Shown piece after piece: positions 16,315 to 47,440 of a stretch of 64,000 nt of DNA. The stretch is from a bacterium (lineage in GTDB: Bacteria > Electryoneota > JAOADG01), in contig OY820579.1 in the NCBI GenBank assembly GCA_963681965.1, forward strand, positions 1,632,001 to 1,696,000, read 5' to 3'. Below the pieces are notes generated by a model. It was not told the origin of the DNA. It saw only the letters and a list, made by a program, of their open reading frames with translations, and searched no databases. Both the position numbers and the translations under genes were made by a program. Each line of letters begins with the position of its first letter. Positions within the stretch are counted from its first letter, which is position 1.

Positions 16315-16386
16315 GACTCCATCGTCTAGTGGTTAGGACTCGAGGTTTTCGACCTCGCAACCGGGGTTCGAACCCCCGTGGAGTCG
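16315..16386 (+). tRNA. tRNA-Glu (TTC)
   Basis: Cloverleaf; anticodon arm CGAGG-TTTTCGA-CCTCG; GGTTCGAAC T loop; CCA not encoded. Confidence 0.93.
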
Positions 16387-16462
16387 CAGTCTAGCGGTTC
16401 GATCAGACATGTTCTTTCATTCTTGTTTTGACCGGATTCCGATGGTACTATTCCATTGGTTT

Positions 16463-16536
<74 letters not shown>

Positions 16537-16641
16537 CGATAACAGTTGTTTACGTAGATAAGTCTGAAATAAGACGATAACTTGATTTTTCGGGCGATAT
16601 AGCGTTATATTAAGCGCTTGCGACGGTTTTAATCGTTCTTT

Positions 16642-16714
16642 GCGGGAGTAACTCAGTTGGTAGAGTGCCACGTTGCCAACGTGGTTGTCGCCGGTTCGAG
16701 TCCGGTCTCCCGCT
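16642..16714 (+). tRNA. tRNA-Gly (GCC)
   Basis: GCGGGAG acceptor; arm CCACG-TTGCCAA-CGTGG; discriminator U. Confidence 0.96.
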
Positions 16715-16854
16715 CTCCATCGGTTCGGAAGGGTGGCAATGGAACGTTGTGCCATCTTTACCCGCGATCGCATCGCAGGGCTGATGCCGATACCTCACGT
16801 GCTGGGCGGAGACGAATACGGTTCTCCGTTTTATTTTTTCGGCGAGAGGGTTAC

Positions 16855-16926
<72 letters not shown>

Positions 16927-16942
16927 CTTTGAGTTGGGAACC

Positions 16943-17026
16943 GCCGGGGTGGCGGAATAGGCAGACGCAAGGGACTTAAAATCCCTCGGGGTAACACCCG
17001 TACCGGTTCAAGTCCGGTCCTCGGCA
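16943..17026 (+). tRNA. tRNA-Leu (TAA)
   Basis: Arm AGGGA-CTTAAAA-TCCCT; long variable arm. Confidence 0.96.
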
Positions 17027-17089
17027 CGCGGGACATTGCAGTCCGCGCCAGTTACATGGACGGATCCTTGCGATGTCGGCAAGAATTTC

Positions 17090-17164
<75 letters not shown>

Positions 17165-17249
17165 CTGCGATACAATCGTACGCGCAAATGAATTTCATCG
17201 GCGCCGCTATTGCGGCGTCTTGTGTCAGAGACCGCTGGAGGAGTATACC

Positions 17250-30466: not shown

Positions 30467-33400
30467 ATGGGAAACTGGCGTTTGTTTTTGTTAACCGGCT
30501 TGTTGCTGATTTCAGCAGCGATTTATGCACGAGAGTGGACACCCGACGATGATGTCATCGACGGTATTCCAATTGAAGGCGCTGTCAACATTACCTCTCA
30601 GTCGTTTGAAGTGGGTCATCTCAAGATCCATTATTCCGACTTTGCAGTCAAAATGGATGCGCTTGACTATCAGAATCGAAAATGGACTCTAGTCACGATC
30701 GATGGCGAAACACGGTTGTGGGATTACGGTCGACCGGCATTGCCGATGATCTCTCGAACTGTACGATTGCCGAATAAAGGCAATGTTCAAGTGGTCGCAA
30801 CACCGGGTGAGTATGTCGATTTTCCGAATGTGGATGTAATGCCACAGCAACTCACCGATCTGAAGCAAGTCGGCAATCATCTTGAACCGCTTTCGTATAA
30901 GTTCGATCAAGAGACATATAATAAGGACTGCTGGTATCCCGAAAATCCAGTACAATTGTCTACACCACAGATTATGCGCGATGCGCGCGCAACAGCGCTG
31001 ATGCTGTGTCCGGTGCAGTACAATCCGGTTACTCGCGTTCTTCGCGTGTACCGCTCTTACGACGTCGAGACGATACCTACCGGTGGCGTCGGTGAAAATG
31101 AATTGGAATTAACGCGATCCCATGCCGTACCAAGTTATGCCGGGATCTACAGCGATATTATCGGTGCCGACGAGCTGACAACCGAAGCGTTGGCAGCACC
31201 TCCCGGCAAGATCATGTTGGTCTGTCGCAGTGCTAGCCAAGCGGCGTGTCAAGCATTTGCCGATTGGAAAACGCAATCGGGACATCCCACGCAATTATAT
31301 GTGACTGCAACGACAGTTGCCGACACAATTCGTGCCGCAGTATTGAATGCATACAATACTTGGAATCCACCATTGGAAACGGTCTTGTTGATGGGGGATG
31401 GAGCAGGCGATTTTTCGATTCCGACCTATTCCTTTAGTTATGTCTATTCCGATCACAATTTCGGATGTCTCGGAACAAGTGTTGTTGCAACGATTTGGAC
31501 CGGTCGTTTACATGCCGACAATGCACAAGAATTGCAAATCCAGATCAACAAATCGGTGAATTACGAACGAAATCCACCGATGGGAACCGCTTCAGTGCCT
31601 GATACCACTTGGTTTACTTACGGTTGGGGTTATGCGGGCACTTCTATGAACATCGTATCAAATCCTCCGAACATTCAGTATTGTCTTGAGATGATGCGAA
31701 GCCGCGGGGTTCGGAATACTGTATTCGATACTCACAATGGACACGTCGATGCCAGTTTAATCAATACCCGACTGAATAACGGTGCAATTTTCTGGGCACA
31801 TCGTGCCGGATGGATTGGAGAAATAAACCAATCCGATGTAACTGGAATGAACAATATCAACAAACCGTTTGTGGGCTTTAACATTACCTGCTCTTCAGGC
31901 GATTGGTTTGGAACATCGGCTTCTGGCATTCATGTTGCATTAACGAAGATGGGTACGACAACCCAAGGTAAAGGGGCACTGGCAGCCGTTTCGACGCAAA
32001 CCTCCGGAACCAATCCGGGACATAATAATGTGATGTCGGCAGGTTCGTTCCATGCATATGGTGTCAAGAAAGCGCGTCAACCGGGACCGATGTTTTTCGA
32101 GGGCAAATACCAGTTATGGCGTAATTACATTTGGAACGGTATTTCCGACTCGTCACAAGCGGTTCAATTTATTTATTGGAATAATCCACTCGGCGATCTT
32201 TCGGTGAACATGTGGTCGGGAGTTCCGCGGAAATTATTAACGACTACACCGCGAACGATGGGATTAGGTCAAAATCGGTTGGAATTGACCGTAACCAAAC
32301 AGCAAGGTGGCACCCCGGTCGCAGGCGCGATGGTAACGGCATTCAAACGAAATGCTACCGGTACAATCACAGAAACTTATGCGCGTGCGATTACCGATAC
32401 CTCAGGTCATGTGTTGTTGACATTGAACAATGCCACAGCAGGCAGTATGTTCGTAACGGTATCTACGAATCAGATAGGACAGAATCTTTATCCTAAGATC
32501 GATACGGTAAGCATTGTGCAACGACCGGTCGATTTATCAGTGGCGAATGTTGTCATTCAGGACGATAACAATAGCGGTCGCGTTGGCAATAACAATCTCA
32601 CCGCCAATCCCGGTGAGACGATCGACCTAACAGTTTCGCTGCAAAACCGCGGAAGTTCGAATGCAACTGGAATTACTGGTAGCATCACAAGCACCGATCC
32701 TCGGGTGACTGTCGGAACTGCAACGGCAACTTGGCCGACCGATTCAGCAGGATCGACCGTTGCCGCAAATGCTGCGATTCGGATTTCATTGCTTAATGGA
32801 TTCAAAGACAATGAAGTTATTCCATTGCGATTAGGGGTAATCACCGATCAAGACACGAATATAATCTCGATCCCGATTACCGTTCGAACGATCAAGATGG
32901 CATTTGTTTCCTATACTACGACACCGGCGGTGATCACTCCCGGTCAACCAGCATCGTTGTCTATCACGGTAAAGAATAGTGGCGGTTTAGCGACTGCGTC
33001 GACGAATGTCTCGTTGTTTACATTATCGCCGTATGCGGCTTTTAGTGTACCCACGGTGGCATTCCCGAGCCTGCCACTCAATACCAACGTTTCGAATCCA
33101 ACCGGTCAACGATTTACGATCGTCAGTAACGGTCGAACGATTCCCGGGACGATCGTCACGATTGGTGCCGCATTCAGTGCCGGTTCGAACATCGATACAG
33201 TGTATTTCACGATGGCAATCGGTACCCGCGCGACCTATCATGCGACGGGACCGGATCCATACGGTTATATGGCGTTCGACAAGACTGATACATCTTACCG
33301 AATGCTTTGTCCTACATACCAATGGGTAGAAATTCTTCCTGCATCGGGTGGTCATGGTACTCGGTTGGCATTAACTGATAACGTAATCGCATCCAATCGC

Positions 33401-35683
33401 TCATCAAACGACGTGTCGCTTCGCGTTCGCTTACCGTTCACAGTGCGGTATTACGGTGCCAATTACGACTCAGCGACCATTTGCAGTAATGGCTGGTTGG
33501 CGTTCGGTTCGCAGCCGAATTATCAAAATAGTCGTAACTGGCATTTGCCGGCATTCGAAGGTCCGCGGAATATCGTCGCGGTCAACTGGTGCGATCAATC
33601 CAACGATGGTTCGAACGAAGGTACTTATGTCTGGAACGATACCGCGAATCATCGGTACATCGTTACTTGGAAAAATACCTCGATGTTTACGCCTTCTGCT
33701 CAGGAATATCAGTTGATCATTTTCGATCCACGATTTAATGAAACCGCTACCGGCGATGCATCGTTGAAATTCCAGTACAAAGTCTTCAATCCAGCGGCAT
33801 ACTCTGGTGGCGAGACTGGTGTTTCGTACGCGACAGTCGGTATTTGCGATAGCACCTATACTAGGGCTTTGGAATACTGCTACTGGAATATGTACAATCC
33901 CGGTTGTGCTCCGATCACGAATGGCAGCAATTCGAATTTTGCCATTATGTTTACAACCTCGAAACCGGTAACTGGACACGTCGGCGGTCTTGTAACGAAG
34001 GCTTCAGACAATACTCCAATTCGCAATGCAGTAGTTGCATTGACGAATGGCGGTCGTAGTGCGATTACCGATTCGAACGGTCATTATTCGATGCGCGACG
34101 TTCAAATCGGCGCCTATAATATTCAGGCAACGTGCTCCGGTTACAATGCCGCAACCGATACTTTGACGGTTGTTGACAGTCTAACGACTACCGTTAATTT
34201 CCATCTTACCGCACCGCGACTGGTAATATCTTTAAATCCGCAAGACACAGTTTTAGCACCGAACGATTCACTGGTATGTTCGTTGCCGGATACTGGCGAT
34301 GCGACGACGTTGAAGATCTATTTACGGAACCGTGGTAATGGTCCGTTAACTTGGAATTCGGAATTGTTGTATGGTGGCGTATTCGATCGCGTTTCCCCAC
34401 AGCCGCAACCCATCGATCCACGGCAACAAAATGGTGGCGATAATTCAACCGACGAATTAAATAATTTGTGGGATCGCGTTTACACTTTCGATGCATCCGC
34501 AGCGGTCGGTGGCGATCAATTATTGAACGGCGTCGAATTCGACGGATTACACATGTGGATCACTGGTGCAACCAATGGTTACGCTCGTCCGCATAAATTA
34601 TACAAATTGACGCGAGCCGGTCAGTTGTTGGCTACCTATGATTGTCCCGATCAGACTGGTTTGATGGGCTGGCGCGATATGGCTTGGGATGGACATTACC
34701 TTTACGGCTCCTATTCCAACTATATCGACAAGATCGATACCTCGAATGGAAGCGTTGTATCACGATTCCAAGTGCAATCGATCAGCGTTGCTCGCGGTAT
34801 CGCGATCGACACTGCCGCTGGCATTATTTATTACGCCGATCAAAACAGCGCCATTTACAAGATGCATTTATCGGACGGCACGGCAGCCGGCAGCGTTGCT
34901 TCGCCGGGTGGTTTGTTCGGTTTGGCATGGTATCCAACCGATCCGGATAATATGCCGTTGTACGCATTCTGCCGCGATTCTTCCGGTCGTACGCGTGGTA
35001 CCCGAGTGTACAAGATCAATCCGACAACCGGTACGACGATATCATTGTTGTCGCTCGGTTCTTCGACTGAAAATGCCAATGGATTGGCAATCACACCGCG
35101 TTGGAATCCGATGCTTTGGACTTCGATTGCGATGCTTGAAAATCCAACTACTGGTGGCAACGATCATGTCGTGATCAACGAGTTGGCATTCAATACGGTT
35201 TGGATTCAATATTCACCGCATGCGTCGACTCTGGAACCGGGTGCGATGGATTCAATTCAGATTCATATCGACAGTCATTTTATGCCGATTGATCGATACC
35301 GTGTGGCAATTCGGTTGGTCACCAACTCCGTGACCGATACCGTTGTCGTTCCGGTAGTGATGAATGTGTATGATCATTTGATCAATTCCGCCGAAGAACC
35401 TACGGCAAAATTGCCCGCGGTTTATGCGCTGGAACAGAACTACCCGAATCCGTTCAATCCTACTACAGCGATCACGTTTGCACTACCTCGTGCCGAACGG
35501 GTGAAACTGTCGGTTTACAATGAATTGGGTCAGGAAGTCGTGAAATTGGTCTCCAATCGACCGATGAGTGCAGGAATGCATTCGGTTACTTTCGATGGCA
35601 GCAAACTGGCGACCGGTCTTTATTTCTACAAGATCGAAGCGGGTTCGTTTGTTTCGACCCGAAAGATGGTTCTGTTGAAGTAG
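30467..35683 (+). CDS. Gingipain-like C25 cysteine peptidase family protein with propeptide, Ig domains, beta-propeller and T9SS-type C-terminal domain
   Basis: GRPALP propeptide, PVQYNP, FADWK..G, LLMGD, SDH, GRL, YERNP, ITCSSG, NPLGD; C-terminal QNYPNPFNP...KMVLLK. Confidence 0.9.
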   Translation: MGNWRLFLLTGLLLISAAIYAREWTPDDDVIDGIPIEGAVNITSQSFEVGHLKIHYSDFAVKMDALDYQNRKWTLVTIDGETRLWDYGRPALPMISRTVRLPNKGNVQVVATPGEYVDFPNVDVMPQQLTDLKQVGNHLEPLSYKFDQETYNKDCWYPENPVQLSTPQIMRDARATALMLCPVQYNPVTRVLRVYRSYDVETIPTGGVGENELELTRSHAVPSYAGIYSDIIGADELTTEALAAPPGKIMLVCRSASQAACQAFADWKTQSGHPTQLYVTATTVADTIRAAVLNAYNTWNPPLETVLLMGDGAGDFSIPTYSFSYVYSDHNFGCLGTSVVATIWTGRLHADNAQELQIQINKSVNYERNPPMGTASVPDTTWFTYGWGYAGTSMNIVSNPPNIQYCLEMMRSRGVRNTVFDTHNGHVDASLINTRLNNGAIFWAHRAGWIGEINQSDVTGMNNINKPFVGFNITCSSGDWFGTSASGIHVALTKMGTTTQGKGALAAVSTQTSGTNPGHNNVMSAGSFHAYGVKKARQPGPMFFEGKYQLWRNYIWNGISDSSQAVQFIYWNNPLGDLSVNMWSGVPRKLLTTTPRTMGLGQNRLELTVTKQQGGTPVAGAMVTAFKRNATGTITETYARAITDTSGHVLLTLNNATAGSMFVTVSTNQIGQNLYPKIDTVSIVQRPVDLSVANVVIQDDNNSGRVGNNNLTANPGETIDLTVSLQNRGSSNATGITGSITSTDPRVTVGTATATWPTDSAGSTVAANAAIRISLLNGFKDNEVIPLRLGVITDQDTNIISIPITVRTIKMAFVSYTTTPAVITPGQPASLSITVKNSGGLATASTNVSLFTLSPYAAFSVPTVAFPSLPLNTNVSNPTGQRFTIVSNGRTIPGTIVTIGAAFSAGSNIDTVYFTMAIGTRATYHATGPDPYGYMAFDKTDTSYRMLCPTYQWVEILPASGGHGTRLALTDNVIASNRSSNDVSLRVRLPFTVRYYGANYDSATICSNGWLAFGSQPNYQNSRNWHLPAFEGPRNIVAVNWCDQSNDGSNEGTYVWNDTANHRYIVTWKNTSMFTPSAQEYQLIIFDPRFNETATGDASLKFQYKVFNPAAYSGGETGVSYATVGICDSTYTRALEYCYWNMYNPGCAPITNGSNSNFAIMFTTSKPVTGHVGGLVTKASDNTPIRNAVVALTNGGRSAITDSNGHYSMRDVQIGAYNIQATCSGYNAATDTLTVVDSLTTTVNFHLTAPRLVISLNPQDTVLAPNDSLVCSLPDTGDATTLKIYLRNRGNGPLTWNSELLYGGVFDRVSPQPQPIDPRQQNGGDNSTDELNNLWDRVYTFDASAAVGGDQLLNGVEFDGLHMWITGATNGYARPHKLYKLTRAGQLLATYDCPDQTGLMGWRDMAWDGHYLYGSYSNYIDKIDTSNGSVVSRFQVQSISVARGIAIDTAAGIIYYADQNSAIYKMHLSDGTAAGSVASPGGLFGLAWYPTDPDNMPLYAFCRDSSGRTRGTRVYKINPTTGTTISLLSLGSSTENANGLAITPRWNPMLWTSIAMLENPTTGGNDHVVINELAFNTVWIQYSPHASTLEPGAMDSIQIHIDSHFMPIDRYRVAIRLVTNSVTDTVVVPVVMNVYDHLINSAEEPTAKLPAVYALEQNYPNPFNPTTAITFALPRAERVKLSVYNELGQEVVKLVSNRPMSAGMHSVTFDGSKLATGLYFYKIEAGSFVSTRKMVLLK

Positions 35684-35839: not shown

Positions 35840-35913
35840 GCTGGGGTAGCTCAGTTGGTTAGAGCGCCAGACTGTGGATCTGGAGGTCGAGGGTTCAAGT
35901 CTCTCCCCCAGTA
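35840..35913 (+). tRNA. tRNA-His (GTG), integration target
   Basis: Arm CCAGA-CTGTGGA-TCTGG; acceptor GCTGGGG/CCCCAGT, discriminator A. Confidence 0.95.
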
Positions 35914-35914
35914 C
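35869..35914 (+). repeat. attL core (46 bp)
   Basis: AGACTGTGGATCTGGAGGTCGAGGGTTCAAGTCTCTCCCCCAGTAC, identical to 47395-47440. Confidence 0.95.
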
Positions 35915-36008
35915 TGATAAATAGAGATTTAAATCCGTTATCTCGATACCAAGTGCTAACGGTTTTAGGCAAAACTGCTAACGGTATTGTCACCTTTCCG
36001 AGGTCACT

Positions 36009-37040
36009 ATGCCGTTTTCTCTTTTTTTGCGAGGCTCCAAGTGGTACATGAAAGTAACCGAGAGTGGGAAAGTTCGATGGAAGTCTACCGGATGTACTGA
36101 TCACGCTGAAGCACAGAAGTTCCTTAGTGCTCATACTAGAAGTGTTTCCAAAAAACCAGCTAGAAAGCCACCAGAACCAATTCTCACCACGCAGTCGATC
36201 ACTTTATCGACTTTCATCGAACAGTATCTCGTATGGTCTTCTGCGAATCATCGTTCTGGATCGGTTGAGATTGTACAGCGATCATTAACGAACTTCAAGA
36301 ATGTGATTGGGGATCTCCCCTTAACAGCGATCAATAAACGACATGTCGATTACTTCAAATGTATCCGAATGGTTCAGATCAAACCGGTGACAGTGAATAT
36401 CGAATTGCGTACGATTCGCAGTGCCTTGTATCAAGCAAAGCGCTGGGGATTGCTTCAGGAAGTTCCGGTTAATGGTAAGGATATGTTCAAGCTGAGTTCC
36501 GATACGATTGCATTATCTGAGCAGGAAGTAACTCTGTTATTGTCTTCGATCAAAGAACCGTGGTTGAAGACGATTGTACTTGTCGCAGTGAATACGGGTA
36601 TGCGAAGAAATGAGTTGTGTAATCTTCGCTGGTCGGATATTGACCAAGAGAAAGGATTGCTCACTATTCATGAATCGAAATCGGGAAAAGCTCGCTGTAT
36701 TCCAATTCCTCCCTCGCTGATCGAAGCGGTGAAAGCAATCCGTAACCACAGTGAGTGGGTTTTCTCGATCGATGGAAAATTGAAAGTGAAAGGAGTTTGG
36801 GCGAGTCATTTGTTCAAGAAGTACTGCCGAAAATTGGGATTGTCCGAGAAAGTTCACTTCCACACGTTACGCCATACTTGTGCATCGATCATGGTTCGCA
36901 ATGGTGTCAGTCTCTACCATGCTTCCAAAGTGCTGGGACACTCCTCTGTGGTGGTTACCGAGAAATACTACGCTCACATGGGAGTAGAAGATCTAAGGGG
37001 TGCGGTGAATGTGGTGGGGGATAGGATTGTTTATTGTTAA
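36009..37040 (+). CDS. Tyrosine recombinase (phage-type integrase)
   Basis: TGMRRNE, SKSGK, HTLRH, LGHS, KYY catalytic motifs all present. Confidence 0.95.
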   Translation: MPFSLFLRGSKWYMKVTESGKVRWKSTGCTDHAEAQKFLSAHTRSVSKKPARKPPEPILTTQSITLSTFIEQYLVWSSANHRSGSVEIVQRSLTNFKNVIGDLPLTAINKRHVDYFKCIRMVQIKPVTVNIELRTIRSALYQAKRWGLLQEVPVNGKDMFKLSSDTIALSEQEVTLLLSSIKEPWLKTIVLVAVNTGMRRNELCNLRWSDIDQEKGLLTIHESKSGKARCIPIPPSLIEAVKAIRNHSEWVFSIDGKLKVKGVWASHLFKKYCRKLGLSEKVHFHTLRHTCASIMVRNGVSLYHASKVLGHSSVVVTEKYYAHMGVEDLRGAVNVVGDRIVYC

Positions 37041-37041
37041 T

Positions 37042-38175
37042 TCAATTTATTAATGCAACAACTTTAATTGTTATATTATCAATCAAATAATTTACAGAAG
37101 GGGGAATTGGAATTGCTATCAATGGATTAAAGAAAAGGAAGTTAATACCTCTAGCACTTTTAGAATTATTTTGGCTAGAAGGATAAATTATTCCATCAAA
37201 ACCATATTCGCGAATGGTTTGTGCTAAAAATTGAGTAACTAAATATTCAGTAGATTCGTCACTTGGTCGGATAGGTTCGCCAAACATTTTCCCTAAAGTT
37301 TCACGAGTTTCTAATACTTCTAGATATTTCAAAAATAGATCATAATGAGTGAACGGTGAATATTTTAGCGAAGTCTGACGAGGTAATAAGTCACATAATT
37401 TTACTTCTCTTTTTAGCTTAAACTTTGAAACAGATACAATATCTTTTTTCGCAGGACGTACCTCATTAATTGCAGTTAATACGCTATCAGCACAATACAA
37501 AAACGGTTGACCTAGAAGATTGGCTCGTCCAGCTCGCGCTTTTTCAGGAGGAGGAGCAATTATCGAAGAACCTGAATGATCTTTCCCGATTCTTGCACGC
37601 CACAAATCAACATTTTTTTGAAGAATAACATCAATCTTTTCCAAGAGTTCAATAAAGATTTTGAAACTATGACGTGTAGCATCATCTAGTTCAACAGTTG
37701 AAATAACCTTATTGAACGTCAACGAATGTCCATATTTTCTAATTGCTTTTTCTAGCAGAGACAAATAAGAGCTAATTGGGAAGTCTAATTTATCAGAATC
37801 ATCTCTATCGAACCAACTATCGGATAATTTAGCTCCATTCTTTGTAATTAAACCAGAATCTATTAAGATATTATCCAACAATTTACGCTGAGTAGTTTCC
37901 GCTAAGCTTAAAGAAAATACACTAAATCTATTTTGAAATTTAGACAGCAATGTTTCGCCTTCTTGAAATTTTCGACGAGAAGATAGAGAATAGTCAAAAT
38001 GAATAAAACTCCTATAGATTACTGGTGAGATCATTTCTCCTAGATCAGATGGCTCTAGACGATGAGTATTTATCTTTTTACAAAATGGACACTGTTCTTC
38101 TGAGAAAACACCATTTTCTCTAATAAATTCTTTAATACCTCTCTCTTGGAAACACCCATCGCAACATTCTACCAT
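37042..38175 (-). CDS. RES-domain protein with Cys-rich N-terminal domain
   Basis: WRAR, AGRAN, TAINEVRP, EYLVTQ..DGIIYPSS; N-terminal CCDGC...CPFC. Confidence 0.85.
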   Translation of the reverse strand: MVECCDGCFQERGIKEFIRENGVFSEEQCPFCKKINTHRLEPSDLGEMISPVIYRSFIHFDYSLSSRRKFQEGETLLSKFQNRFSVFSLSLAETTQRKLLDNILIDSGLITKNGAKLSDSWFDRDDSDKLDFPISSYLSLLEKAIRKYGHSLTFNKVISTVELDDATRHSFKIFIELLEKIDVILQKNVDLWRARIGKDHSGSSIIAPPPEKARAGRANLLGQPFLYCADSVLTAINEVRPAKKDIVSVSKFKLKREVKLCDLLPRQTSLKYSPFTHYDLFLKYLEVLETRETLGKMFGEPIRPSDESTEYLVTQFLAQTIREYGFDGIIYPSSQNNSKSARGINFLFFNPLIAIPIPPSVNYLIDNITIKVVALIN

Positions 38176-38192
38176 TTCTATCTCCTAAAATA

Positions 38193-38768
38193 TTAACCAT
38201 ATATAATTATTAACCAGATGATTAAACTAGTAATTAAAACGATAGTAATTTCTAAAGTTACCAAGCAACCCGCCTTCGTTTGTTGTGTGGAAGGATCGCG
38301 AGCTGTAGGTGTATCATTCTCGAAAGCATTTTCCCCCAGTGGTGGGCGTTCTATTGGTGGAAGTTCTTCAGTTATTACCTTTGAAGTTGGACTCCACATT
38401 TCTGGATTTACCCCACTCTTAGTAATTACCCGGTATTTCATTCTGTGGTTACGACAATAGATTTCACCGGCTTGAAGTTTCCTTGTGGTATTTGCGTCTT
38501 GAAATAGATGCTCCCCTTTGACTTCCCGTAGTTCTTTGGAGCCATCTAAAAGCTCCACAAAGAAATCTGGTTGATAACGCCCGGAAGCACCCCACCATTT
38601 AGTATAGGGAATCTCTACTCCGTGGTGGTGTGTCCATTTTGCAACAAGCGGGTCACGATCAAGCTCATCCATATACTGAAGTTCCCAACCGGAATCGAAC
38701 CATTCTCCCGCTTGTCCACGAGGACTCTTCCGCCAACCTCGCGACCATCCGCGCCGATAGCGAGCCAT
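38193..38768 (-). CDS. TnsA-like PD-(D/E)XK endonuclease with C-terminal transmembrane helix
   Basis: FDSGWE, IPY, YQPDFFV, EVKG; C-terminal ITIVLITSLIIWLIIIYG. Confidence 0.8.
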   Translation of the reverse strand: MARYRRGWSRGWRKSPRGQAGEWFDSGWELQYMDELDRDPLVAKWTHHHGVEIPYTKWWGASGRYQPDFFVELLDGSKELREVKGEHLFQDANTTRKLQAGEIYCRNHRMKYRVITKSGVNPEMWSPTSKVITEELPPIERPPLGENAFENDTPTARDPSTQQTKAGCLVTLEITIVLITSLIIWLIIIYG

Positions 38769-39115
38769 TATACCCGCCTTGAGACGATCTTAAAGATCAT
38801 CCCACGCTTTCGGCAAAACTCTTCACCGGCTTTCAATTTCCGTTCAGTGTCAGGATTACCACGCAGGTGTGTACCTTTTACCTCATGTATTTCCTTTGAG
38901 CCATCCTCACGCTCAATAATAAAATCAGGATTATATGTCGCTTTGGAGTGATCGAGTTTTAGGTAGGGAATTTTCAAAGATCGGCAGCGCTCCCACTTTT
39001 TAACGGTCTCATCCTCATCGAGCAAGAGCATATAGTCACGTTCCCATGTGGAATCGTAAGGTTCACTTTTCCGGGTACACCGCTTGAGATTACTGACTAT
39101 TCCGTGTTCACTCAT
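38768..39115 (-). CDS. TnsA-like PD-(D/E)XK endonuclease
   Basis: YDSTWE, IPY, YNPDFII, EVKG; overlaps both neighbours. Confidence 0.85.
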   Translation of the reverse strand: MSEHGIVSNLKRCTRKSEPYDSTWERDYMLLLDEDETVKKWERCRSLKIPYLKLDHSKATYNPDFIIEREDGSKEIHEVKGTHLRGNPDTERKLKAGEEFCRKRGMIFKIVSRRV

Positions 39116-41178
39116 GATTCTGGTGGATTGTCTAATATAGATTTTAAAAGCGTTCGGATATTAAACTCGTGTCGAATGTAATGTAAACTGTCTTGAAGCA
39201 TTAGCAGTTGTGCTTCCCGATCACATTGACCGATTGTCAGTCCACCTAAGAACTTTTCGCTAATGTGGTATAGAAGTACTGAATAGATTATTCCTCTACC
39301 ACTTGGCGGAAGCCCGTTATTGTATAGAAGTTCCTTAGCAATTTCAAGAAGTTGGTCACCGATTTCTGTTTGTCGCTGTTTGATCGAGAGCGTTTCCTTA
39401 GGAGTGTTAAAAAGATCATTAGAGGTACTTTCACTCTCCGAATAGACAGTAGATGTGACAAAGCCCGTTCCAGTTAAATCACGTTCACTTTCACCCGACC
39501 GAACCTCATTAGTTACCGAAATATATTGACGGGGGTATTCAATGGCGTGTAAGTAATCCTGCCAACTCCCTACGAAGGTTCTATCCTCGTCTTCGATAAT
39601 ATCAGGTAATTCGATTTCTTCTTCTTCCTCCTCAAGTACTGGTTCGGGTGTAATGATTGAATCGTCAGTTTCCTCCACAGTTTCGGGATTCCCTTCGTCA
39701 AGGTCGAGTGTCTCGGTCGCTCCAACATTCTCTTTTACATAAGCGTCAATTACCTTCCAAAGCCACCCGTGGTTAAGTTTCGGATGATCAACAACAACTA
39801 GACGTTCCTTTTCCTCCATATCTAAAGGAAACATTCGTCTCAGACCGCGCCCGATTACTTGTTGTCCGTATACCGGAGAGGAAAACTTGCGTAACAAAGC
39901 AATCACTGACACCGATCGAACGTCCCAACCTTCGCGTAACATCAGTACACTAACTACAGCATCGTAATTATTCTCGTCTTTCGGTGAACCGATTGTCATA
40001 GCGACACGTAATTCTTCCTTACGTTGTTCCGGGCTAATATCCGTTTCATCATCATCCTTTGAGGCAATGACAAAGGTATTCAAATGATGTTCCTCATCAA
40101 GGACTCGCTTTGCATTGTAAGCGTCTTTGATACTTACAGCGACCACAAAGAGAATCGGCTTGTATCTATCCTTTGCTCTTAATTTTTGCTCTTCAAGCCG
40201 CCTTACCGCCAGTTCCAATTGTTGTCGGAGTGGTTTGGGACTGGTTACCCACTTTGTAGCAGGAATTCGTTTGGCTTCAATTTCCTCCCACGGTATATCT
40301 TCCACTTTAACGACCGCTCCGGTTTCAGTATCGGTATAAGTCAGTTCCACAGTTTTTATATTCGGTTGACAAACATAAATTGTCTTTACGATACCGTCTT
40401 TTACGGCTTGTTTTATCCCGTATTCATAGATCATGCGACTACGAGGGTTTTCTTTGTCGGCGCGGTCTGGAGTCGCTGTAGTATCTACCCGTAGAAATGT
40501 TTTACCGGATTGTGAAAGAGAGTCAAGCAGTTCATCATACTTAGGCGCTACAGTATTGTGAGCTTCGTCATTGAACACAGCAATTCGCCCGGTGTGGTTC
40601 ATAATGACTGCGAAATTCTCAGCGCCTTGGTCACTAGAGGTATAGAGTTGGTGAATGTTACAAAGGGTTATCGAAGCATTTCGGATACCGGCACTACCTG
40701 AACCAGACTCCAATACATGGAGCACCATATCGTGAACAAAGTGAGCGTATTCCGGGGGAAAGAACTGGAACCGTTTCCACACGGAATCGTCACGATCCGG
40801 TTTTTCAAAGTCCTGTCGGAGCCGTTCTCTAACTATAGTATTCGGAGTAATGACGAGGAAAGCTCGAATCTCGTGACAAACCCGCAAATACGCCATCAGC
40901 GCCGCTATGATTGCAGTTTTACCGCCTCCGGTTACCACATTGAGGAGTAAATCCTTCCACCCTCGATCAACAGGTTTCAGGAATTCGTTGGCGAAAACAG
41001 TTCGAAGGAACGCTTCGGATTGATGTTTCCACAGTATTGGATGGTCTGCTGTCGTTGTTTCCAAAGCTAGGTGAGACAGGAAATCACGGACAATATCCGA
41101 GGTTTCGGGAGTACGAAAGCCGGATGTTACCCATGCTTGATAAGTTCGTAAATGCGAAGCCGTGAAGCTATTAAACAA
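39112..41178 (-). CDS. Type III restriction Res-like SF2 helicase with no C-terminal nuclease domain
   Basis: TGGGKT, NDEAHN, TATP, LREGWDV, QVIGRGLR; ends in an acidic linker and helical region with no PD..EXK. Confidence 0.85.
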   Translation of the reverse strand: MFNSFTASHLRTYQAWVTSGFRTPETSDIVRDFLSHLALETTTADHPILWKHQSEAFLRTVFANEFLKPVDRGWKDLLLNVVTGGGKTAIIAALMAYLRVCHEIRAFLVITPNTIVRERLRQDFEKPDRDDSVWKRFQFFPPEYAHFVHDMVLHVLESGSGSAGIRNASITLCNIHQLYTSSDQGAENFAVIMNHTGRIAVFNDEAHNTVAPKYDELLDSLSQSGKTFLRVDTTATPDRADKENPRSRMIYEYGIKQAVKDGIVKTIYVCQPNIKTVELTYTDTETGAVVKVEDIPWEEIEAKRIPATKWVTSPKPLRQQLELAVRRLEEQKLRAKDRYKPILFVVAVSIKDAYNAKRVLDEEHHLNTFVIASKDDDETDISPEQRKEELRVAMTIGSPKDENNYDAVVSVLMLREGWDVRSVSVIALLRKFSSPVYGQQVIGRGLRRMFPLDMEEKERLVVVDHPKLNHGWLWKVIDAYVKENVGATETLDLDEGNPETVEETDDSIITPEPVLEEEEEEIELPDIIEDEDRTFVGSWQDYLHAIEYPRQYISVTNEVRSGESERDLTGTGFVTSTVYSESESTSNDLFNTPKETLSIKQRQTEIGDQLLEIAKELLYNNGLPPSGRGIIYSVLLYHISEKFLGGLTIGQCDREAQLLMLQDSLHYIRHEFNIRTLLKSILDNPPES

Positions 41179-41187
41179 GGCAAACTC

Positions 41188-43326
41188 CTAGTGTACTTTG
41201 AGTACTTGGATTTTAATACCCTCACCACCAAGATCATCTTGAACCCGGCAAGCGATACTAACAGGTGTTCCGGGTTCCAGATCCTCGAAGGTGTATTCCA
41301 CAGTCAGCTCACCTTCAAAGCCACGCTCACCTTTGCCTTTCTTTTCTTTCCGACAAAGTTGAAACCCTTGTGTCGCTGAGAAGATTCCACCTCGGAAATC
41401 AAAGTCCCATTGCACATTGATTATCTTACCACCCATAACCGAACGTGCCTCCGATACATCGAAGCGATATTTCATGGTGCTTAAACGGGTTACACCAATT
41501 CTGGGAATTTCTGGAGGCAAGATAAAACGGAAGAAATCCTTGTACTTATCGTGTTTTTTCGTGACATGCTTCTTTAGTTCTTCGCCATCCAAAGACCACA
41601 ATTGAAGTTTGATGAACTGAATCGGTTTTTGTTTGCCCATTGCAACAAGTTTGTCGGCATAAGCCCGGGCACTCGGTAGAATAGTCCAACCAATCATAAC
41701 AGCTTGCCGTTCTTCCTGTCTACGGCTTTTCATCACAGCGCTTGCAAAGCCCTTTACGTCATTTGCATTAATCGCGTCCGTTTCCTTTACTCCACCGATC
41801 CAGAGTAATTCTCTCCCTTTCACGCCATGAATATTCGAGTCGGAACCAGTCCACTTCCGAGCACCATAACAAGCTAGAACAAACGCCCGGAATTCATCGT
41901 CACTCAGCTTTGTAAGTCGATCGATCTCGTAGATACCCCAATGCTCTACTGAGTAACCAGTATCCCGTAGGATTGAGGATTCTACAGCTTTCTTCTTAGA
42001 CGCCTCGACACTTGAAAGTGTAGGGTCTTCGATAATAAGACCTAATGGAGTAGAAAGTGTTTCTTCCTTCACTTTCTTTTTGGTTCGTTTTATATCTTGA
42101 AGTGAAGGAGCTAGAAGGCGTGCAATTCGGTCGGCAGTAAGAGCCACAGCCACACGGGATATATCACTTCCGATCCAACGTCTCCCGAGTCGGTGAGCAA
42201 CGGCGCAAGTTGCACCTCCGCCACAGAAGAAATCGGCAACAACATCATTTCTGTCTGTCGTTGCATTGATGATTCTTTCTAAGAGTTGCTCCGGTTTCTG
42301 AGTGGGGTAACCGATTTTTTCAATTGCTTGTGAATTTACTGGAGGTATGTCAATCCAGATCGATCCGACAGGAATCCCTTTAGATTCATCGAGATATCTT
42401 TTATAGGAAGGTTGACCATTTTTTGTAAATACTATACGACCATTTTTTAAGTATTCATCTATTGTCTCTTGTGTCCACTGCCAATGTCTACCAGTGGGTG
42501 GGCTTAAAAGTTGACCATTAAACAATCTAGCTGTTCCTTGTCCCGCTGCAGTAGCATCACCTAATCGGAACCTACGACCATCCGGATCTTCACCCGTATA
42601 ATGACTATCAACATATTTTGAAGTATGTTCACTGTATTGAGGATTGTGTTTTGGCTGTTTCGAATTGGAGTATAAGAAAATTATATCGTGAATATTTGCG
42701 AATCTTCTAGCGTCGCCGTGGATTGAAACTCTTTGCCAAACGATCTCGGTTATGAAATTGTCGTAACCGAATATTTTATCTAGTTCACATTTGACATAAT
42801 GACTCGCATGCCAATCAAGATGAACGTAAATGCTTCCAGTTGATTTGAGAAGCCGTTTCATCTCGTAGAGACGTGTATTCAACCAAATCAAGTAACCGGG
42901 CATTCCCCCTTCCCAGATATCCGAGAATGAACGAATTTCGTTTTTGTCGCCGAAAATGATATTGTAGTTTCGACCGGAAAAGAACGGAGGGTCAATGTAG
43001 ATAAGATCGATGGACTCACTGGGAAGCATTCTCATGACATGAAGATTGTCACCAAAAAAGAGCCGGTTACGACCTTGAGGAAATAGTTCATTAACTTTAC
43101 CGAGGCGCTCGGCTTGGGTTTTTACCACATCTACAACTTGAAAAGGGAGTTCGATACGGGGGTAGTGGTGCTCGAAGCGCCGTTCCGGGTCGTAACCAAG
43201 GGGTATCTCTGCAACTGGTACATGACCGAAGCGAGCCGGAATTTTGAAGAAACCTTTTTGTTCAGGTATCTCTACTGGTGAGATTATAGGTTGTTCCGGG
43301 ACTTCATCATCTAGGGGAGCCGACAT
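41188..43326 (-). CDS. Beta-class N6/N4 DNA methyltransferase (Type III Mod-like) with long C-terminal extension
   Basis: GDNL, IYIDPPF, YPTQKPE, DFFCGGG; likely start MSAPLDD at 43326. Confidence 0.92.
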   Translation of the reverse strand: MSAPLDDEVPEQPIISPVEIPEQKGFFKIPARFGHVPVAEIPLGYDPERRFEHHYPRIELPFQVVDVVKTQAERLGKVNELFPQGRNRLFFGDNLHVMRMLPSESIDLIYIDPPFFSGRNYNIIFGDKNEIRSFSDIWEGGMPGYLIWLNTRLYEMKRLLKSTGSIYVHLDWHASHYVKCELDKIFGYDNFITEIVWQRVSIHGDARRFANIHDIIFLYSNSKQPKHNPQYSEHTSKYVDSHYTGEDPDGRRFRLGDATAAGQGTARLFNGQLLSPPTGRHWQWTQETIDEYLKNGRIVFTKNGQPSYKRYLDESKGIPVGSIWIDIPPVNSQAIEKIGYPTQKPEQLLERIINATTDRNDVVADFFCGGGATCAVAHRLGRRWIGSDISRVAVALTADRIARLLAPSLQDIKRTKKKVKEETLSTPLGLIIEDPTLSSVEASKKKAVESSILRDTGYSVEHWGIYEIDRLTKLSDDEFRAFVLACYGARKWTGSDSNIHGVKGRELLWIGGVKETDAINANDVKGFASAVMKSRRQEERQAVMIGWTILPSARAYADKLVAMGKQKPIQFIKLQLWSLDGEELKKHVTKKHDKYKDFFRFILPPEIPRIGVTRLSTMKYRFDVSEARSVMGGKIINVQWDFDFRGGIFSATQGFQLCRKEKKGKGERGFEGELTVEYTFEDLEPGTPVSIACRVQDDLGGEGIKIQVLKVH

Positions 43327-43447
43327 TTTTAACCTCTGTGGTCTATGATGAATCAATATACAATAGGTTTCTATTCGATCCTTACAAACAAGTAACAATT
43401 TGTATTCTTCGCTTTATCAATCCCCCTACCCCTAAAATAATGCAATT

Positions 43448-43810
43448 CTAGTACCGACGGTACGAGCGGCGCGGGGGTTCTTTCACGCTAAATTCACGAC
43501 CGGAAGCGATCAAGAATAATATTTTGCTAATGGTCGGATCATCGGAACGATTCGCGATCCGCTTGGTCATCCATTCTGGAAGTGTCCCTTTTATTCGACA
43601 GACCTTCAACTGGTTCAGGTTAATCGAACGGGATAACGAATCTATCAACCACACTGGACAATCACAGACACCACGTTCCACAGAAGAGATGAATTGCTGC
43701 GTTACTTCCAGCTTACGAGCGAGTTCGGCTTGAGTGTAACCGTGATCGATTCTCGCTTTCCGAATCTCTTTCCCGATAAGTTCCCGTGTCGTTTGATCCT
43801 CGGTATCCAT
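43448..43810 (-). CDS. XRE-family helix-turn-helix regulator
   Basis: IRKARIDHGYTQAELARKLEVTQQFISSVERG. Confidence 0.88.
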   Translation of the reverse strand: MDTEDQTTRELIGKEIRKARIDHGYTQAELARKLEVTQQFISSVERGVCDCPVWLIDSLSRSINLNQLKVCRIKGTLPEWMTKRIANRSDDPTISKILFLIASGREFSVKEPPRRSYRRY

Positions 43811-43960
43811 GCTCTACCCCCTACCACAGTTGAAGTTCACCCTACCTAACAACCAATGAAGGATGAAGGATTCTCGCCCGAATTTCATTAGCACTTTATA
43901 TACCCATTTAAAAAATCCGATGAAAAATAGGTCTAAATCCATCATCCTTCACACTGCTTA

Positions 43961-46327
43961 TCAGGTTGACTGCTCCTCCGGTTTATTCAATGGTTTCAGT
44001 TGCAGACCCTTGAAGTAAATACCATCGGCTCTCTTGACCTTGGTGAACCCGTTGATCCTGACCAGACTCATCGAGAATGATTTCGGAGATATGCAAATCT
44101 CACCTTCACCGTACTCAGACTTCCACCATTCTTGAAAAGCAGCAAATAGATCAGCATGAGATACAGATCCTTGTTCGACGGTCTCACAGCATTCCTTCGT
44201 GAAACTGTAAACTTGATCGGTATCTTCCTGCCATGCCCGGGTAGCAAGTTGTACTTGTTCAGGCTCACTACCGAACCCCTTCTCGATGTGGTACTCATTC
44301 AATCCTTGAAGCGCCCACATGAGAACGCCATCCAACTCAGACTCGATGATTCTCTTGTCTAAGTCCATGATACGCTCTTGTTCAGGAATGTGAACCCGGA
44401 ACGGAATCACTCTTGCTCGATCCCAATACGCTTCATCGGCATCTCGCAATCGTGGGAGTTTATTGGTAGCGAACCAGACCTTGAACTGTGGTTTGAAGGT
44501 GAACTCGCGCTCATTCAGATTACGAGCATTGAGTGGATCGTTACCTGTTACTTGCTTGACAGCGTTCACACTCAACTGATACCCTTCATCACATTCCGAG
44601 ATGGTAACCAACCTTTTCCCATGGAGCATAGCTCGCTCTCGCTTCACTTCCAGATCTTTTCGATTGGAGGCAAAGGCTTCGAAACCGACACTCACACTGT
44701 AATCTCCAATGAGAGCCGAGATAACATTCAGGAAGGTAGATTTTCCTGTTGCCGTTTTATTGTCGAATACAAGCCACAGTTTTCGCTTGGGATTACCGCC
44801 CAAAAGCGTGTAACCGACACACTTCTGAACGTATCGAATCAGCTCTGAGTCATTGTTCAACGCATGCTTAATGAATCGTTCCCACTTTGGACACTTGGCA
44901 GAGGGATCATAGCTTCCATTGATACTCTTAGTGATATAATGTTCCCGGTCGAAATCTAATTGTACAAGCGTTCGAAGATCGATTGTACAGTTTCGGCAAG
45001 TAAGCAGGTACTCAATCTTATCGAGTTCTTCCACATTGACAGAAATATCCTCAACGACTCTGCAACTCTTTTCAATGCTAGATAGACCAGAACTCTCGTA
45101 AGCTCGTGTGACTGATTCAAGCAGTTTCTTACGTGTAGATCCGGATAAACTGCAGTATTTGCCAATCGATGATTGAACAAACAATCGCAGAGCAGAAAGT
45201 AGTACTACGTCTTCAACATGCTTCCACAGTTGACCTGTCCAGTGATACCATCGTCCTAGATTCGGTATAAATCGCCAATCCTGACCATGCGCCCCAATAA
45301 AGGCATCGGCAAACCACGCAAGCGGTAACTTCGAGCATTCATCCCAAACCTTCGGATCACGCCATTTAACCTCTTGAATCGATAGACTGGGCAAGGGAAA
45401 GTTCCCTCGATTACAAGCGCGCCTGATCGTTCGTTCCCGATAATCGCGACGTTCCCACTTATCAGCTCGGTACAATCCGGAAGCGTAAAAGACTTGCTCT
45501 ACCCAAGCTGGATCGTCTTTGATTCTAAGTAGCTTCGAACAGAGAGCAAGATCGGCTCGGCTTTCATCGAAATCGTAACGATCAGAGTTCCCTTCCCAGA
45601 GTTCGGTAAATATCTCATCCCGATCTATTGCACGTTGAATAATTCGCTCATCCTGTTCAGAGAGCTTGCGTGGTGTCGCTGTATTCACTTCTGAATGCCA
45701 CTCTACCGACTCGACAATGCTCTCAGTGAAATACTTACTGTGGAGAGTGTCGATTGCCTCCTGACGGGATTCTAGCGTTTTCGGGGTTCCTTCGAGATGA
45801 TTACCCGTTACAATAAAGAAACGACCGGTATCGTAGAACTCAATATCTTTGAAGCCGTATTCTTCCATTCCGTGTTTGTGACTAGTCTTCGTCAATTCAC
45901 CCTTGACTAGAATGTGGAAACCCTTACCGCTCTTCGACCATTCAGTATAACTGTTGGCAGTCTTAATGATCTCCAGCGCTTCGGGGACGATCTCACCGGT
46001 ATCATCCACGCACTTATCAAGATCGATACCGGTTATTCCACACTCTTTAGTAAAGACAAAGCCGATACCATCGAAACCACCTTTTTCATAGGCTCTGAGT
46101 ACTTCAGCATAAGGTTTCCACTTCGAAGGATCATTCACTTTTGCTTTGAAGCCGTTGATTTGATAGGGTGCTTTGTTTCTGTGGAGTACCCAGTTGGGTA
46201 TCTGGGTAAGCTCTTGGGGAATTGGGAGTTGTTGAAAATCAGGTTGTTGTTGATATTTTTCAGAATTTTGGGGATCCCCTCTTGCTTTTGTAGGAGTATC
46301 CACCTTACTTTGTTTTAAGGTTTTCAT
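43961..46327 (-). CDS. Primase-polymerase fused to a D5/SF3 helicase (P4-family / NrS-1-like)
   Basis: GIDLD, EWSKSGKGFHI, EFYDTGRF, DESRADLALC; helicase TGKST, KQVTGND, ATNKLP, YWDR. Confidence 0.9.
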   Translation of the reverse strand: MKTLKQSKVDTPTKARGDPQNSEKYQQQPDFQQLPIPQELTQIPNWVLHRNKAPYQINGFKAKVNDPSKWKPYAEVLRAYEKGGFDGIGFVFTKECGITGIDLDKCVDDTGEIVPEALEIIKTANSYTEWSKSGKGFHILVKGELTKTSHKHGMEEYGFKDIEFYDTGRFFIVTGNHLEGTPKTLESRQEAIDTLHSKYFTESIVESVEWHSEVNTATPRKLSEQDERIIQRAIDRDEIFTELWEGNSDRYDFDESRADLALCSKLLRIKDDPAWVEQVFYASGLYRADKWERRDYRERTIRRACNRGNFPLPSLSIQEVKWRDPKVWDECSKLPLAWFADAFIGAHGQDWRFIPNLGRWYHWTGQLWKHVEDVVLLSALRLFVQSSIGKYCSLSGSTRKKLLESVTRAYESSGLSSIEKSCRVVEDISVNVEELDKIEYLLTCRNCTIDLRTLVQLDFDREHYITKSINGSYDPSAKCPKWERFIKHALNNDSELIRYVQKCVGYTLLGGNPKRKLWLVFDNKTATGKSTFLNVISALIGDYSVSVGFEAFASNRKDLEVKRERAMLHGKRLVTISECDEGYQLSVNAVKQVTGNDPLNARNLNEREFTFKPQFKVWFATNKLPRLRDADEAYWDRARVIPFRVHIPEQERIMDLDKRIIESELDGVLMWALQGLNEYHIEKGFGSEPEQVQLATRAWQEDTDQVYSFTKECCETVEQGSVSHADLFAAFQEWWKSEYGEGEICISPKSFSMSLVRINGFTKVKRADGIYFKGLQLKPLNKPEEQST

Positions 46328-46931
46328 TAGAGTGCACCTCTTTTAGATGACCTTGCGTATGCTCATGGTGTGACAGCACTGTGAGCATTTTTTTCGGCTA
46401 ATCCATTCGAATTGAATTACACCGAAACGAATTACTTTTGTCGATTCAACGACAATCCAAATATAAGGAATATATTTGGAAAATCCAATATATTATTTGC
46501 TTATAAAGTCAATTTTGAGTGATCGTATCGCTTTGAATTATAGTCGAATATAATATTCATATTGATATTAGGATTGGTTGTGAAAATTATTGATTGGCGC
46601 GGTCTATAGGTATCAATTGCAAGATCACAAACAGATTTTTGCACTAAATTGTGACTAGAAAAATACAACTCTTTTCTACTGACTCTCGGAGAGTTTCCAC
46701 GTTCAGAGGTCAGTATTTATCGGGGTGTGTTCTTGTTCGAGTAATCTGACTATTGACAAACTATGCGATTTCCGGGGGGAGATCAAGTCACCAAGATACA
46801 TCGGTAAGTTTGCATTTACTTTTCAAGATAATCGAACAATCGAGGAAGAGTATATCGGTGAATGGCGGGGATAGCTTTCTGTGTAAATTGGAAATGTATC
46901 ATTTCATGTACGTTTGTAGAGAGGATTCGAA

Positions 46932-47144
46932 ATGGGAGTAGTTAATTTTCTTTCCGATAAATCGGGACGTGTTTGGGCAGTACCCACCTCACCTGAAAAA
47001 TCACCTTGGGTTCTTTCCGATCCCAAAGGTGGTAATTGGACTGAAGCACCTCGTTCCAAAGTACCAGAAAAGTTGGTTCCATTAGACTCTAGTGGTACAA
47101 CTGAAGCAACACGTTCATTTGTAGCATACGGATTGCGTTCGTAA
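46932..47144 (+). CDS. Small hypothetical protein (70 aa)
   Basis: ATG preceded by GAGAGGA; the only plausible ORF at the right end of the element. Confidence 0.45.
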   Translation: MGVVNFLSDKSGRVWAVPTSPEKSPWVLSDPKGGNWTEAPRSKVPEKLVPLDSSGTTEATRSFVAYGLRS

Positions 47145-47394
47145 ATGTCTTTCCATCCAGTTTCTGATCAAGGATAATTTATTTGACCAAATTCTCGTTG
47201 AGTAAATTCTCGGTAATCGATACCCCAAAATGAATCCCAACCTCCCTCTTGACTTTGACTCGGGAATTTTCGAGATTAGTGCTAACGGTTCGCACCCAAA
47301 ATTCATCGATACCGTTAGCAGTTGTCGCTAAAAAAATCTCTGGAAATCGTTAATTATCAGTAGCTAAGAGGGTGTATCAGCGCTGGCGAATCAA

Positions 47395-47440
47395 AGACTG
47401 TGGATCTGGAGGTCGAGGGTTCAAGTCTCTCCCCCAGTAC
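47395..47440 (+). repeat. attR core (46 bp duplicate of tRNA-His 3' half)
   Basis: Identical to 35869-35914. Confidence 0.95.

Follow-up and report, generated by a model that had tools for sequence, protein, structure and literature searches.

The 64,000-nt stretch of contig OY820579.1 analysed here (the window; assembly GCA_963681965.1, positions 1,632,001 to 1,696,000, from a bacterium of the GTDB lineage Electryoneota; JAOADG01) probably carries a restriction-modification (R-M) system of Type III-like character, in which the restriction subunit Res is split into a helicase/translocase of 688 aa and a separate PD-(D/E)xK nuclease of about 115 aa. Together with a Mod-like methyltransferase (MTase), these proteins are most likely encoded by an old, translationally coupled cassette that forms the cargo of an island in a tRNA-His gene. 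In the window, the nuclease appears in duplicate (NucA and NucB), and a RES-domain protein encoded behind it is presumably a separately acquired effector of the NAD+-targeting type. All five genes are co-oriented on the minus strand according to both open reading frame (ORF) calls and sequence reading (Table 1) and run in the order from MTase to RES, with 9 nt between the MTase and helicase genes, overlaps of ATGA (helicase/NucA) and TAATG (NucA/NucB), and 17 nt between NucB and RES; re-reading of the sequence thereby upheld the positions and junctions given in a preliminary description of this locus as a five-gene defence operon. In Pfam, the MTase matches N6_N4_Mtase (PF01555, 1.6e-41), the helicase ResIII (PF04851, 1.3e-15), NucA and NucB Tn7_TnsA-like_N (PF08722, 8.1e-10 and 1.7e-11, respectively) and the RES protein the RES domain (PF08808, 1.8e-14, residues 191-353). 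Scans for promoters and terminators gave results at chance level.

In an alignment of 22 helicase sequences, GGGKT and DEAH show no variation or almost none, and the Pfam matches of the helicase are limited to ResIII and SWI2_SNF2. An AlphaFold2 model (mean pLDDT 77.6) displays two RecA lobes, a disordered acidic linker (residues 498-532) and a C-terminal helical bundle (599-683). In VIA-align comparisons covering residues 12-495 of this model, the highest fold match was RadD (6jde, Z 25.1), along with EcoP15I Res (4zcf_C, Z 18.9, rmsd 3.9 over 369 residues) and an HsdR fragment (3h1t, Z 18.7). As modelled, the helicase core resembles superfamily 2 (SF2) double-stranded DNA translocases including EcoP15I Res and HsdR. 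At the sequence level, no PDB entry was matched at E ≤ 0.01, and the C-terminus falls into no Pfam family. A nuclease domain was found in the helicase neither as a Pfam match nor as a match to a nuclease profile nor as a fold in the model. When the profile of the detached nuclease was run with filters off against the eight proteins of the window, it recovered NucA (6.9e-51) and NucB (1.3e-37) and nothing else, in line with the earlier statement that the SF2 motifs are present without a PD-(D/E)xK domain.

Such a domain is encoded by each of the two genes that follow. Aligned across 115 columns, NucA and NucB share 39% identity. The E...PDF...ExK residues, conserved to at least 90% in a set of 80 family members, are retained in each of them; in NucA, residues E18, E25, D64, E78 and K80 are invariant across 25 sequences. 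Hence, the two small genes are intact paralogues, as had been described. With regard to their origin, of 21 long Res-like helicases (846-1144 aa) from distant loci, 20 are also matched by the detached-nuclease profile in their C-terminal part, 18 of them at E ≤ 4e-6 (relative to a small ORF set), and the one from locus L111 is not matched at all. In NCBIfam, the best family for helicase, NucA and NucB alike is the fused NF046055 (BPTD_3080 family, 970 positions), of which the helicase matches positions 529-618 and both nucleases positions 858-937. Additionally, NucA and NucB match the C-termini of PADLOC REase_III models. Because it matches the C-termini of fused Res relatives in profile, NCBIfam and PADLOC comparisons, the small nuclease can be regarded as the Res nuclease domain in the form of a free subunit, and the separate nuclease subunit posited in the preliminary description is retained.

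Fused relatives with the same nuclease domain at their C-terminus thus exist, and the split might in principle be an artefact or recent lesion (a frameshift, nonsense mutation or assembly error) of a normal fused res gene. The chance of this is, however, practically negligible. A search of 5.8 billion proteins, in which sequences of up to 1204 aa were eligible, gave 3355 matches among 7999 scored candidates, and all whole-query homologues among the top 120 listed measure 654-727 aa. Likewise, in a search of 1.84 billion representatives the full-profile matches span 655-714 aa, followed by a tier of 820-1156 aa that matches in the motor core only. The preliminary description would have abandoned its reading if close homologues were always fused to the nuclease; all full-length close homologues are instead split. 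Long forms occur at a distance: in 21 loci on viral contigs (L092-L113 range; 25-29% identity), the MTase gene precedes a gene for a helicase of 846-1144 aa, and a separate nuclease is missing. The helicase profile covers these fused relatives over positions ~10-450 only, and the C-terminal ~225 positions of the split helicases (profile positions 450-675, about 200 aa) have no counterpart there, so that the split family possesses a conserved C-terminal region of its own which is missing from the fused forms. Furthermore, NucA and NucB genes each have their own start codon and a conserved N-terminus, and in 76 of 80 related genome loci, drawn from many phyla, the same division is found, with the stop codon of one gene overlapping the start codon of the next. 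Because of this recurrence and the uniform size of the full-length homologues, the split is, judged from the sequences, a stable and clade-wide gene fission rather than the result of a frameshift or of faulty assembly.

The 80 loci are the best of 592 confirmed genome loci (from 599 candidate stretches, with one genome per species) of an alignment-based scan, and they were read by searching the window proteins against six-frame ORFs. With 31 further loci, the set of related loci amounts to 111; related-locus scans with a single protein gave none in genome contigs and one distant locus in metagenome contigs. A nuclease gene follows the helicase gene singly in 74 and doubly in two of the 76 loci; of the remaining four, three are cut by the contig end and L053 lacks a detected helicase or nuclease ORF. 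The MTase gene lies upstream in 70 of the 80 loci; of the other ten, seven are truncated by the contig end, and three (L015, L017 and L060) lack an MTase gene. The genes are closely spaced, with a gap of at most 18 nt between MTase and helicase genes in 53 of the 68 loci having both, and a helicase/nuclease overlap of typically 11-14 nt in the relatives. The same three-gene order was found in eight further loci (one metagenome contig, one genome of the same phylum and six viral contigs). Hosts include Chloroflexota (Dehalococcoidia), Planctomycetota, Verrucomicrobiota, Bacteroidota, Patescibacteria, Thermodesulfobacteriota and archaea, in addition to some viral contigs. The contexts of the cassette are many and unrelated, and only mod, helicase and nuclease are conserved among them. 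The synteny of four to five genes that the preliminary description had proposed to look for in other genomes is therefore borne out in its mod-helicase-nuclease order, but the conserved system comprises three genes and not four or five; as far as sequences tell, this core of mod, helicase and ~115-aa nuclease is old and widespread. Its distribution is patchy at closer range, since the helicase was detected in two of 40 related genomes and in none of three from the same family. Among PLSDB plasmids no close helicase homologue was found, with all 81 matches below 28% identity and none spanning 80% of the query.

The remaining member of the core, the MTase, is by its predicted fold a Type III Mod-like amino-methyltransferase of the beta class. 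Its DPPF motif (D112-F115) and its F-G-G-G motif (F367, G369-G371) are invariant in 26 aligned sequences; motif IV (112-115) precedes motif I (367-371), and the unconserved stretch between them at ~200-335 constitutes a putative target recognition domain. PDB sequence matches are CcrM and Type III Mods. In a Foldseek search with the MTase model (pLDDT 76.8, pTM 0.78), the top six rows all derive from two structures of Type III Mods (EcoP15I, 4zcf, and Helicobacter pylori, 6k0w), with EcoP15I Mod as best match (4zcf_B, E 1.6e-19). VIA-align gave 6k0w_B (Z 24.9), 7dsu_B (Z 24.3) and 4zcf_B (Z 24.0). With Type III Mods as top fold matches and a Res-like helicase alongside, the Type III-like character assigned earlier holds. 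Behind a helical linker, the model predicts a further conserved alpha/beta domain at ~475-591 (window 41551-41901) with a restriction-endonuclease-like fold, for which VIA-align returned 1y88_A (Z 11.2, rmsd 3.1 over 104 residues), NucS (2vld_B, Z 9.7) and FokI (2fok_A, Z 9.1). The conservation pattern of this domain shows no D...(D/E)xK triad, and the domain would be non-catalytic and possibly a docking site. The protein is predicted to end in a PKD/FN3-like beta-sandwich (residues 602-712). For the MTase C-terminus, no Pfam family was found, and an Atlas feature search returned unnamed clusters only.

The preliminary description had also noted the duplication of the nuclease. Two nuclease genes are found only in the window and, within the 80 loci, in its two closest genome loci, L002 and L003 (66% helicase identity). 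In a tree of 80 nucleases, the NucA clade and the NucB clade (three rows each) are sisters with support of 98/82, and therefore a single tandem duplication in the subclade of the window fits the origin of NucB. Synteny in this close clade rests on three loci and on cluster counts: 53 further NucB-type clusters exist, mostly of 170-190 aa, and the longest contigs of at least ten of them are equal in size to those of close-clade helicases. NucB consists of the PD-(D/E)xK core (~1-117), a linker and a hydrophobic C-terminal tail (~170-191). A hydrophobic C-terminal 19-mer (Kyte-Doolittle mean > 1.6) is found in 43 of 54 NucB-type clusters, and several of the remaining ones end in an amphipathic-looking helix. 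The tail probably anchors the protein in or on the membrane, and a second nuclease which would be membrane-associated with its catalytic residues intact is the most unusual feature of the locus. A tentative extension of this view, rather less likely to hold than to fail, is that the restriction enzyme of the two-nuclease subclade is tethered to the cytoplasmic membrane through the NucB tail anchor or, in some members, the amphipathic helix, and that NucB pairs with soluble NucA on the Mod-helicase complex to give a nuclease with two active sites that cuts DNA at entry. This would differ from classical Type III cleavage, which proceeds by collision of two complexes. In the literature searched, which is incomplete for subscription journals, no account of a membrane-anchored restriction nuclease was found. 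As a separate observation, protein P0179 (276 aa, from a record labelled as a Verrucomicrobiota metagenome-assembled genome) looks like a decayed two-nuclease locus, in which the C-terminal part of the helicase (to ~600) is fused straight to the tail of NucA, followed by NucB.

Type III enzymes require two inversely oriented unmethylated sites for ATP-dependent cleavage, and only one DNA strand is methylated. By analogy, Mod would recognize an asymmetric site via its variable mid-region and methylate the host DNA. On unmethylated DNA, the helicase would use ATP hydrolysis for communication along the DNA, and the small nuclease, held on the complex by a family-specific surface, would cut. Candidates for such a holding surface are the C-terminal helical bundle of the helicase and the nuclease-like C-terminal domain of Mod, while NucB may either form a NucA/NucB pair or localize the enzyme at the membrane.

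A function outside classical R-M has to be weighed against this assignment. The locus could encode a methyltransferase-linked helicase-nuclease acting on another substrate, the nuclease-like domain of the MTase could be catalytic with the small proteins as adaptors, or a TnsA-like mobile-element function could be involved. Such readings can appeal to the best Pfam name of the small proteins, to the conserved restriction-endonuclease-like domain at the MTase C-terminus and to the fact that cut-offs of curated R-M families are not reached; they are nevertheless very unlikely. It is the small proteins that keep the invariant E/D/ExK set and share homology with the nuclease domain of Res in fused mod-res loci, whereas the MTase domain is devoid of the conserved triad. 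The cassette occurs in many unrelated contexts with only its three genes conserved, and a TnsB-like transposase partner is absent from the loci. The TnsA-like label was accordingly rejected as an indication of transposition. Several points do count against the Type III-like assignment. Scores of the window proteins in curated families are all far under the cut-offs (for NF046055, 74.9 bits for the helicase and 32.6 and 27.6 for the nucleases at a cut-off of 800), the best PADLOC REase_III match of the helicase covers only profile positions 248-377 of 871, and the MTase finds its best PADLOC matches among Type II models. Moreover, the synteny counts rest on the top of a longer locus list, and all steps of the mechanism are inferred by analogy with Type III enzymes.

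Among known systems, classical Type III enzymes (EcoP15I/EcoPI; Mod2Res1) share with the cassette co-oriented and coupled mod and res genes in this order, a beta-class Mod with a variable internal region and the Type III Mod fold, an SF2 ResIII motor and a nuclease homologous to the C-terminal PD-(D/E)xK domain of Res. Type III enzymes are, however, defined by a fused helicase-nuclease Res. In the window, the nuclease is a separate and duplicated polypeptide of ~115 aa, a family-specific C-terminal region takes its place in the helicase, and Mod has an extra conserved C-terminal part of ~250 aa. The NF046055 family provides the best NCBIfam match, and the fused Res proteins of L092-L113 likewise follow an MTase gene, yet these relatives are single proteins of 846-1144 aa with 25-29% identity confined to the motor core. 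A separation of nuclease and helicase is also known from CglI and NgoAVII, where, as reported, a separate nuclease and an SF2 helicase-like ATPase must form a complex (PMC4267653, PMC5861437, PMC5737866) and the R protein itself recognizes the site (PMC5861437). By the criteria of these published descriptions, both are three-gene ATP-dependent R-M systems with nuclease and helicase as separate proteins, but their helicase is of the DEAD-Z1 type in contrast to ResIII in the window, where the nuclease is a bare TnsA-like domain of 115 aa and recognition presumably resides in Mod. No sequence relationship between CglI/NgoAVII and the window system was detected. Type III systems reported to have an additional ATPase gene at the 5' side represent a different variant (PMC8259958). 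PADLOC profiles gave no named system beyond weak R-M matches, in agreement with the earlier remark that the architecture corresponds to none, and in the literature searched, which did not cover REBASE and was thin for subscription journals, no Type III system with a detached TnsA-like nuclease is described.

The fifth gene of the operon tells a different story. Characterised RES toxins act on NAD+, and in the RES protein of the window R217, Y227 and E238 are invariant, with the Ser of YPSSQ present in four of six rows. Its N-terminal region is Cys-rich, with C29 and C32 invariant and Cys pairs aligning with relatives; this N-terminus belongs to no Pfam family, and a PDB sequence search of the protein gave no helpful match. 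The preliminary description had cast RES as a built-in abortive-infection backup of a five-gene modular system, triggered when restriction fails. Some features are compatible with such a role: RES is last in the operon, directly convergent on the integrase stop codon, its catalytic R, Y and E are intact, and the cassettes of relatives harbour defence or toxin modules of other kinds. Besides, it has neither an adjacent Xre-type antitoxin nor the two partner ORFs of its relatives (see below), so that some other restraint would be needed. Because RES lies only 17 nt behind NucB with a Shine-Dalgarno sequence of its own (AGGAG in the gap, ahead of the RES ATG) and without room for a terminator, it is probably co-transcribed with the R-M genes, and a local functional link is possible, which speaks against treating it as wholly separate. 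Also, its absence from the closest clade rests on L003 and on cluster counts, because L003 is the only two-nuclease relative with sequence beyond NucB.

A built-in backup role is unlikely nevertheless, as none of the 111 related loci (0/80 genome loci and 0/31 further loci) has a RES match. Only five RES-related clusters were found (best 39% identity) versus 53 for NucB, and by the sizes of their longest contigs none is common to RES-related clusters and close-clade helicases. The composition of the gene deviates as well, with a GC content of 0.331 and a third-position GC (GC3) of 0.201 compared to 0.44-0.45 and 0.36-0.46, respectively, in the four R-M genes. In the same phylum, a RES relative occurs in six of 78 other genomes, and the full-length relatives in L115 and L116, both from this phylum, sit behind two other ORFs and not behind R-M genes. 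From its distribution, GC3 and the different operons of its relatives, it is concluded that RES would be a recent, separately acquired insertion between cassette and integrase rather than a conserved component, and the claim of an integral backup effector is not supported.

In L115 (1438-3972) and L116 (1393-3962), the long RES gene is the last of a conserved cluster after genes for proteins of 312-314 aa and at least 171 aa without Pfam family. These two partners are 38.5% and 26% identical between L115 and L116 and have no match in the window; the cluster may represent an unnamed three-gene RES system. The RES relatives P0124, P0126 and that of L116 (here at 1e-08) carry PF18870 and thereby resemble the long HEPN/RES-NTD1 proteins (PF18870 + PF08808), but residues 1-190 of the window protein gave no PF18870 match at E ≤ 5. 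With RES-Xre toxin-antitoxin systems the window protein shares the RES domain with conserved R, E and Ser; however, no antitoxin of the Xre/DUF2384 type adjoins it, its neighbours being NucB and the convergent integrase, and the sole gene for a helix-turn-helix (HTH) protein is found upstream of the MTase gene, at a distance of 5 kb from RES.

The R-M genes and RES are cargo of an integrase/primase island in the tRNA-His gene, a setting left unmentioned in the preliminary description, because the five genes lie between the tRNA repeats together with integrase, HTH and primase genes. Two 46-nt repeats, 11,526 nt apart, bound an island of about 11.5 kb (35869-47440), and both features that mark a tRNA-integrated island, a tyrosine integrase by the tRNA and a distal repeat of the tRNA 3' end, are present. 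The XRE-family HTH gene gave weak PADLOC matches to control proteins and stands beside the cassette in only two of the 111 related loci (L025 and L091); its product either regulates the island or possibly controls the operon. Copies of a 16-nt motif (AAGTGCTAACGGTTTT-like) lie at 35951-35966 and 35973-35988 just inside the left end and at 47277-47292 just inside the right end, and they could be arm-type binding sites of the integrase. The section 46328-47394 (~1.07 kb, GC 0.388) contains no ORF of at least 70 aa and has a hairpin on the plus strand at 46359-46388 (13-bp stem and T-run); the element may have its replication origin or a regulatory region here. Rfam recognized only the tRNA and gave no match in this section. 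Outside the island, a cluster of six tRNA genes (Glu, Ala, Gly, Cys, Leu, Val) is located at 16315-17165, and an ORF of 1738 aa (30467-35683) ends just upstream of tRNA-His.

Table 1. Positions of the operon genes, of the island features around them (window coordinates) and of modules found in related loci (locus coordinates)
Feature	Position	Strand	Remarks
MTase gene	41188-43326	-	ATG at 43326; longest frame from TTG at 43398
Helicase gene	39112-41178	-	688 aa; TTG start; N-terminus MFNSF aligns with first homologue residues
NucA gene	38768-39115	-	115 aa
NucB gene	38193-38768	-	191 aa
RES gene	37042-38175	-	377 aa
tRNA-His	35840..35914	+	ARAGORN; Rfam 70.9 bits
Left attachment repeat	35869-35914	+	3' 46 nt of tRNA-His
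Right attachment repeat	47395-47440	+	copy of tRNA-His 3' end, 46 nt identical to 35869-35914
Tyrosine integrase	36009-37040	+	PF00589 1.1e-33; convergent with RES
XRE-family HTH protein	43448-43810	-	PF01381 3.2e-08; 121 nt upstream of MTase gene
D5/P4-family primase-helicase	43961-46327	-	PF08706, PF19263; TIGR01613 1e-70
SMC-like ATPase and Schlafen/AlbA_2 protein	L003:2457-6516		between MTase and helicase
AlbA_2	L034:5343-6707		between MTase and helicase
HD	L049:1862-3130		between MTase and helicase
MNT/HepT (HEPN-MNT)	L055:6181-6859		between MTase and helicase
DUF433/PIN	L059:5761-6849		between MTase and helicase
DUF3800	L065:6103-6846; L070:526-1356		between MTase and helicase
NYN	L067:2006-2962		between MTase and helicase

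In related loci, further defence or toxin modules have gathered at the junction between MTase and helicase genes, an insertion hot spot; their positions are included in Table 1.

A widespread family with a free nuclease mini-subunit would provide a natural setting in which to examine the coupling between motor activity and cleavage. At the same time, split-Res loci would be missed or mis-typed under the current rules of R-M and defence finders. The presumably tail-anchored second nuclease of the window's subclade raises the question of where in the cell restriction happens. Finally, the cassette as a landing pad for defence and toxin modules, such as RES in the window, would be useful for the discovery of new modules.

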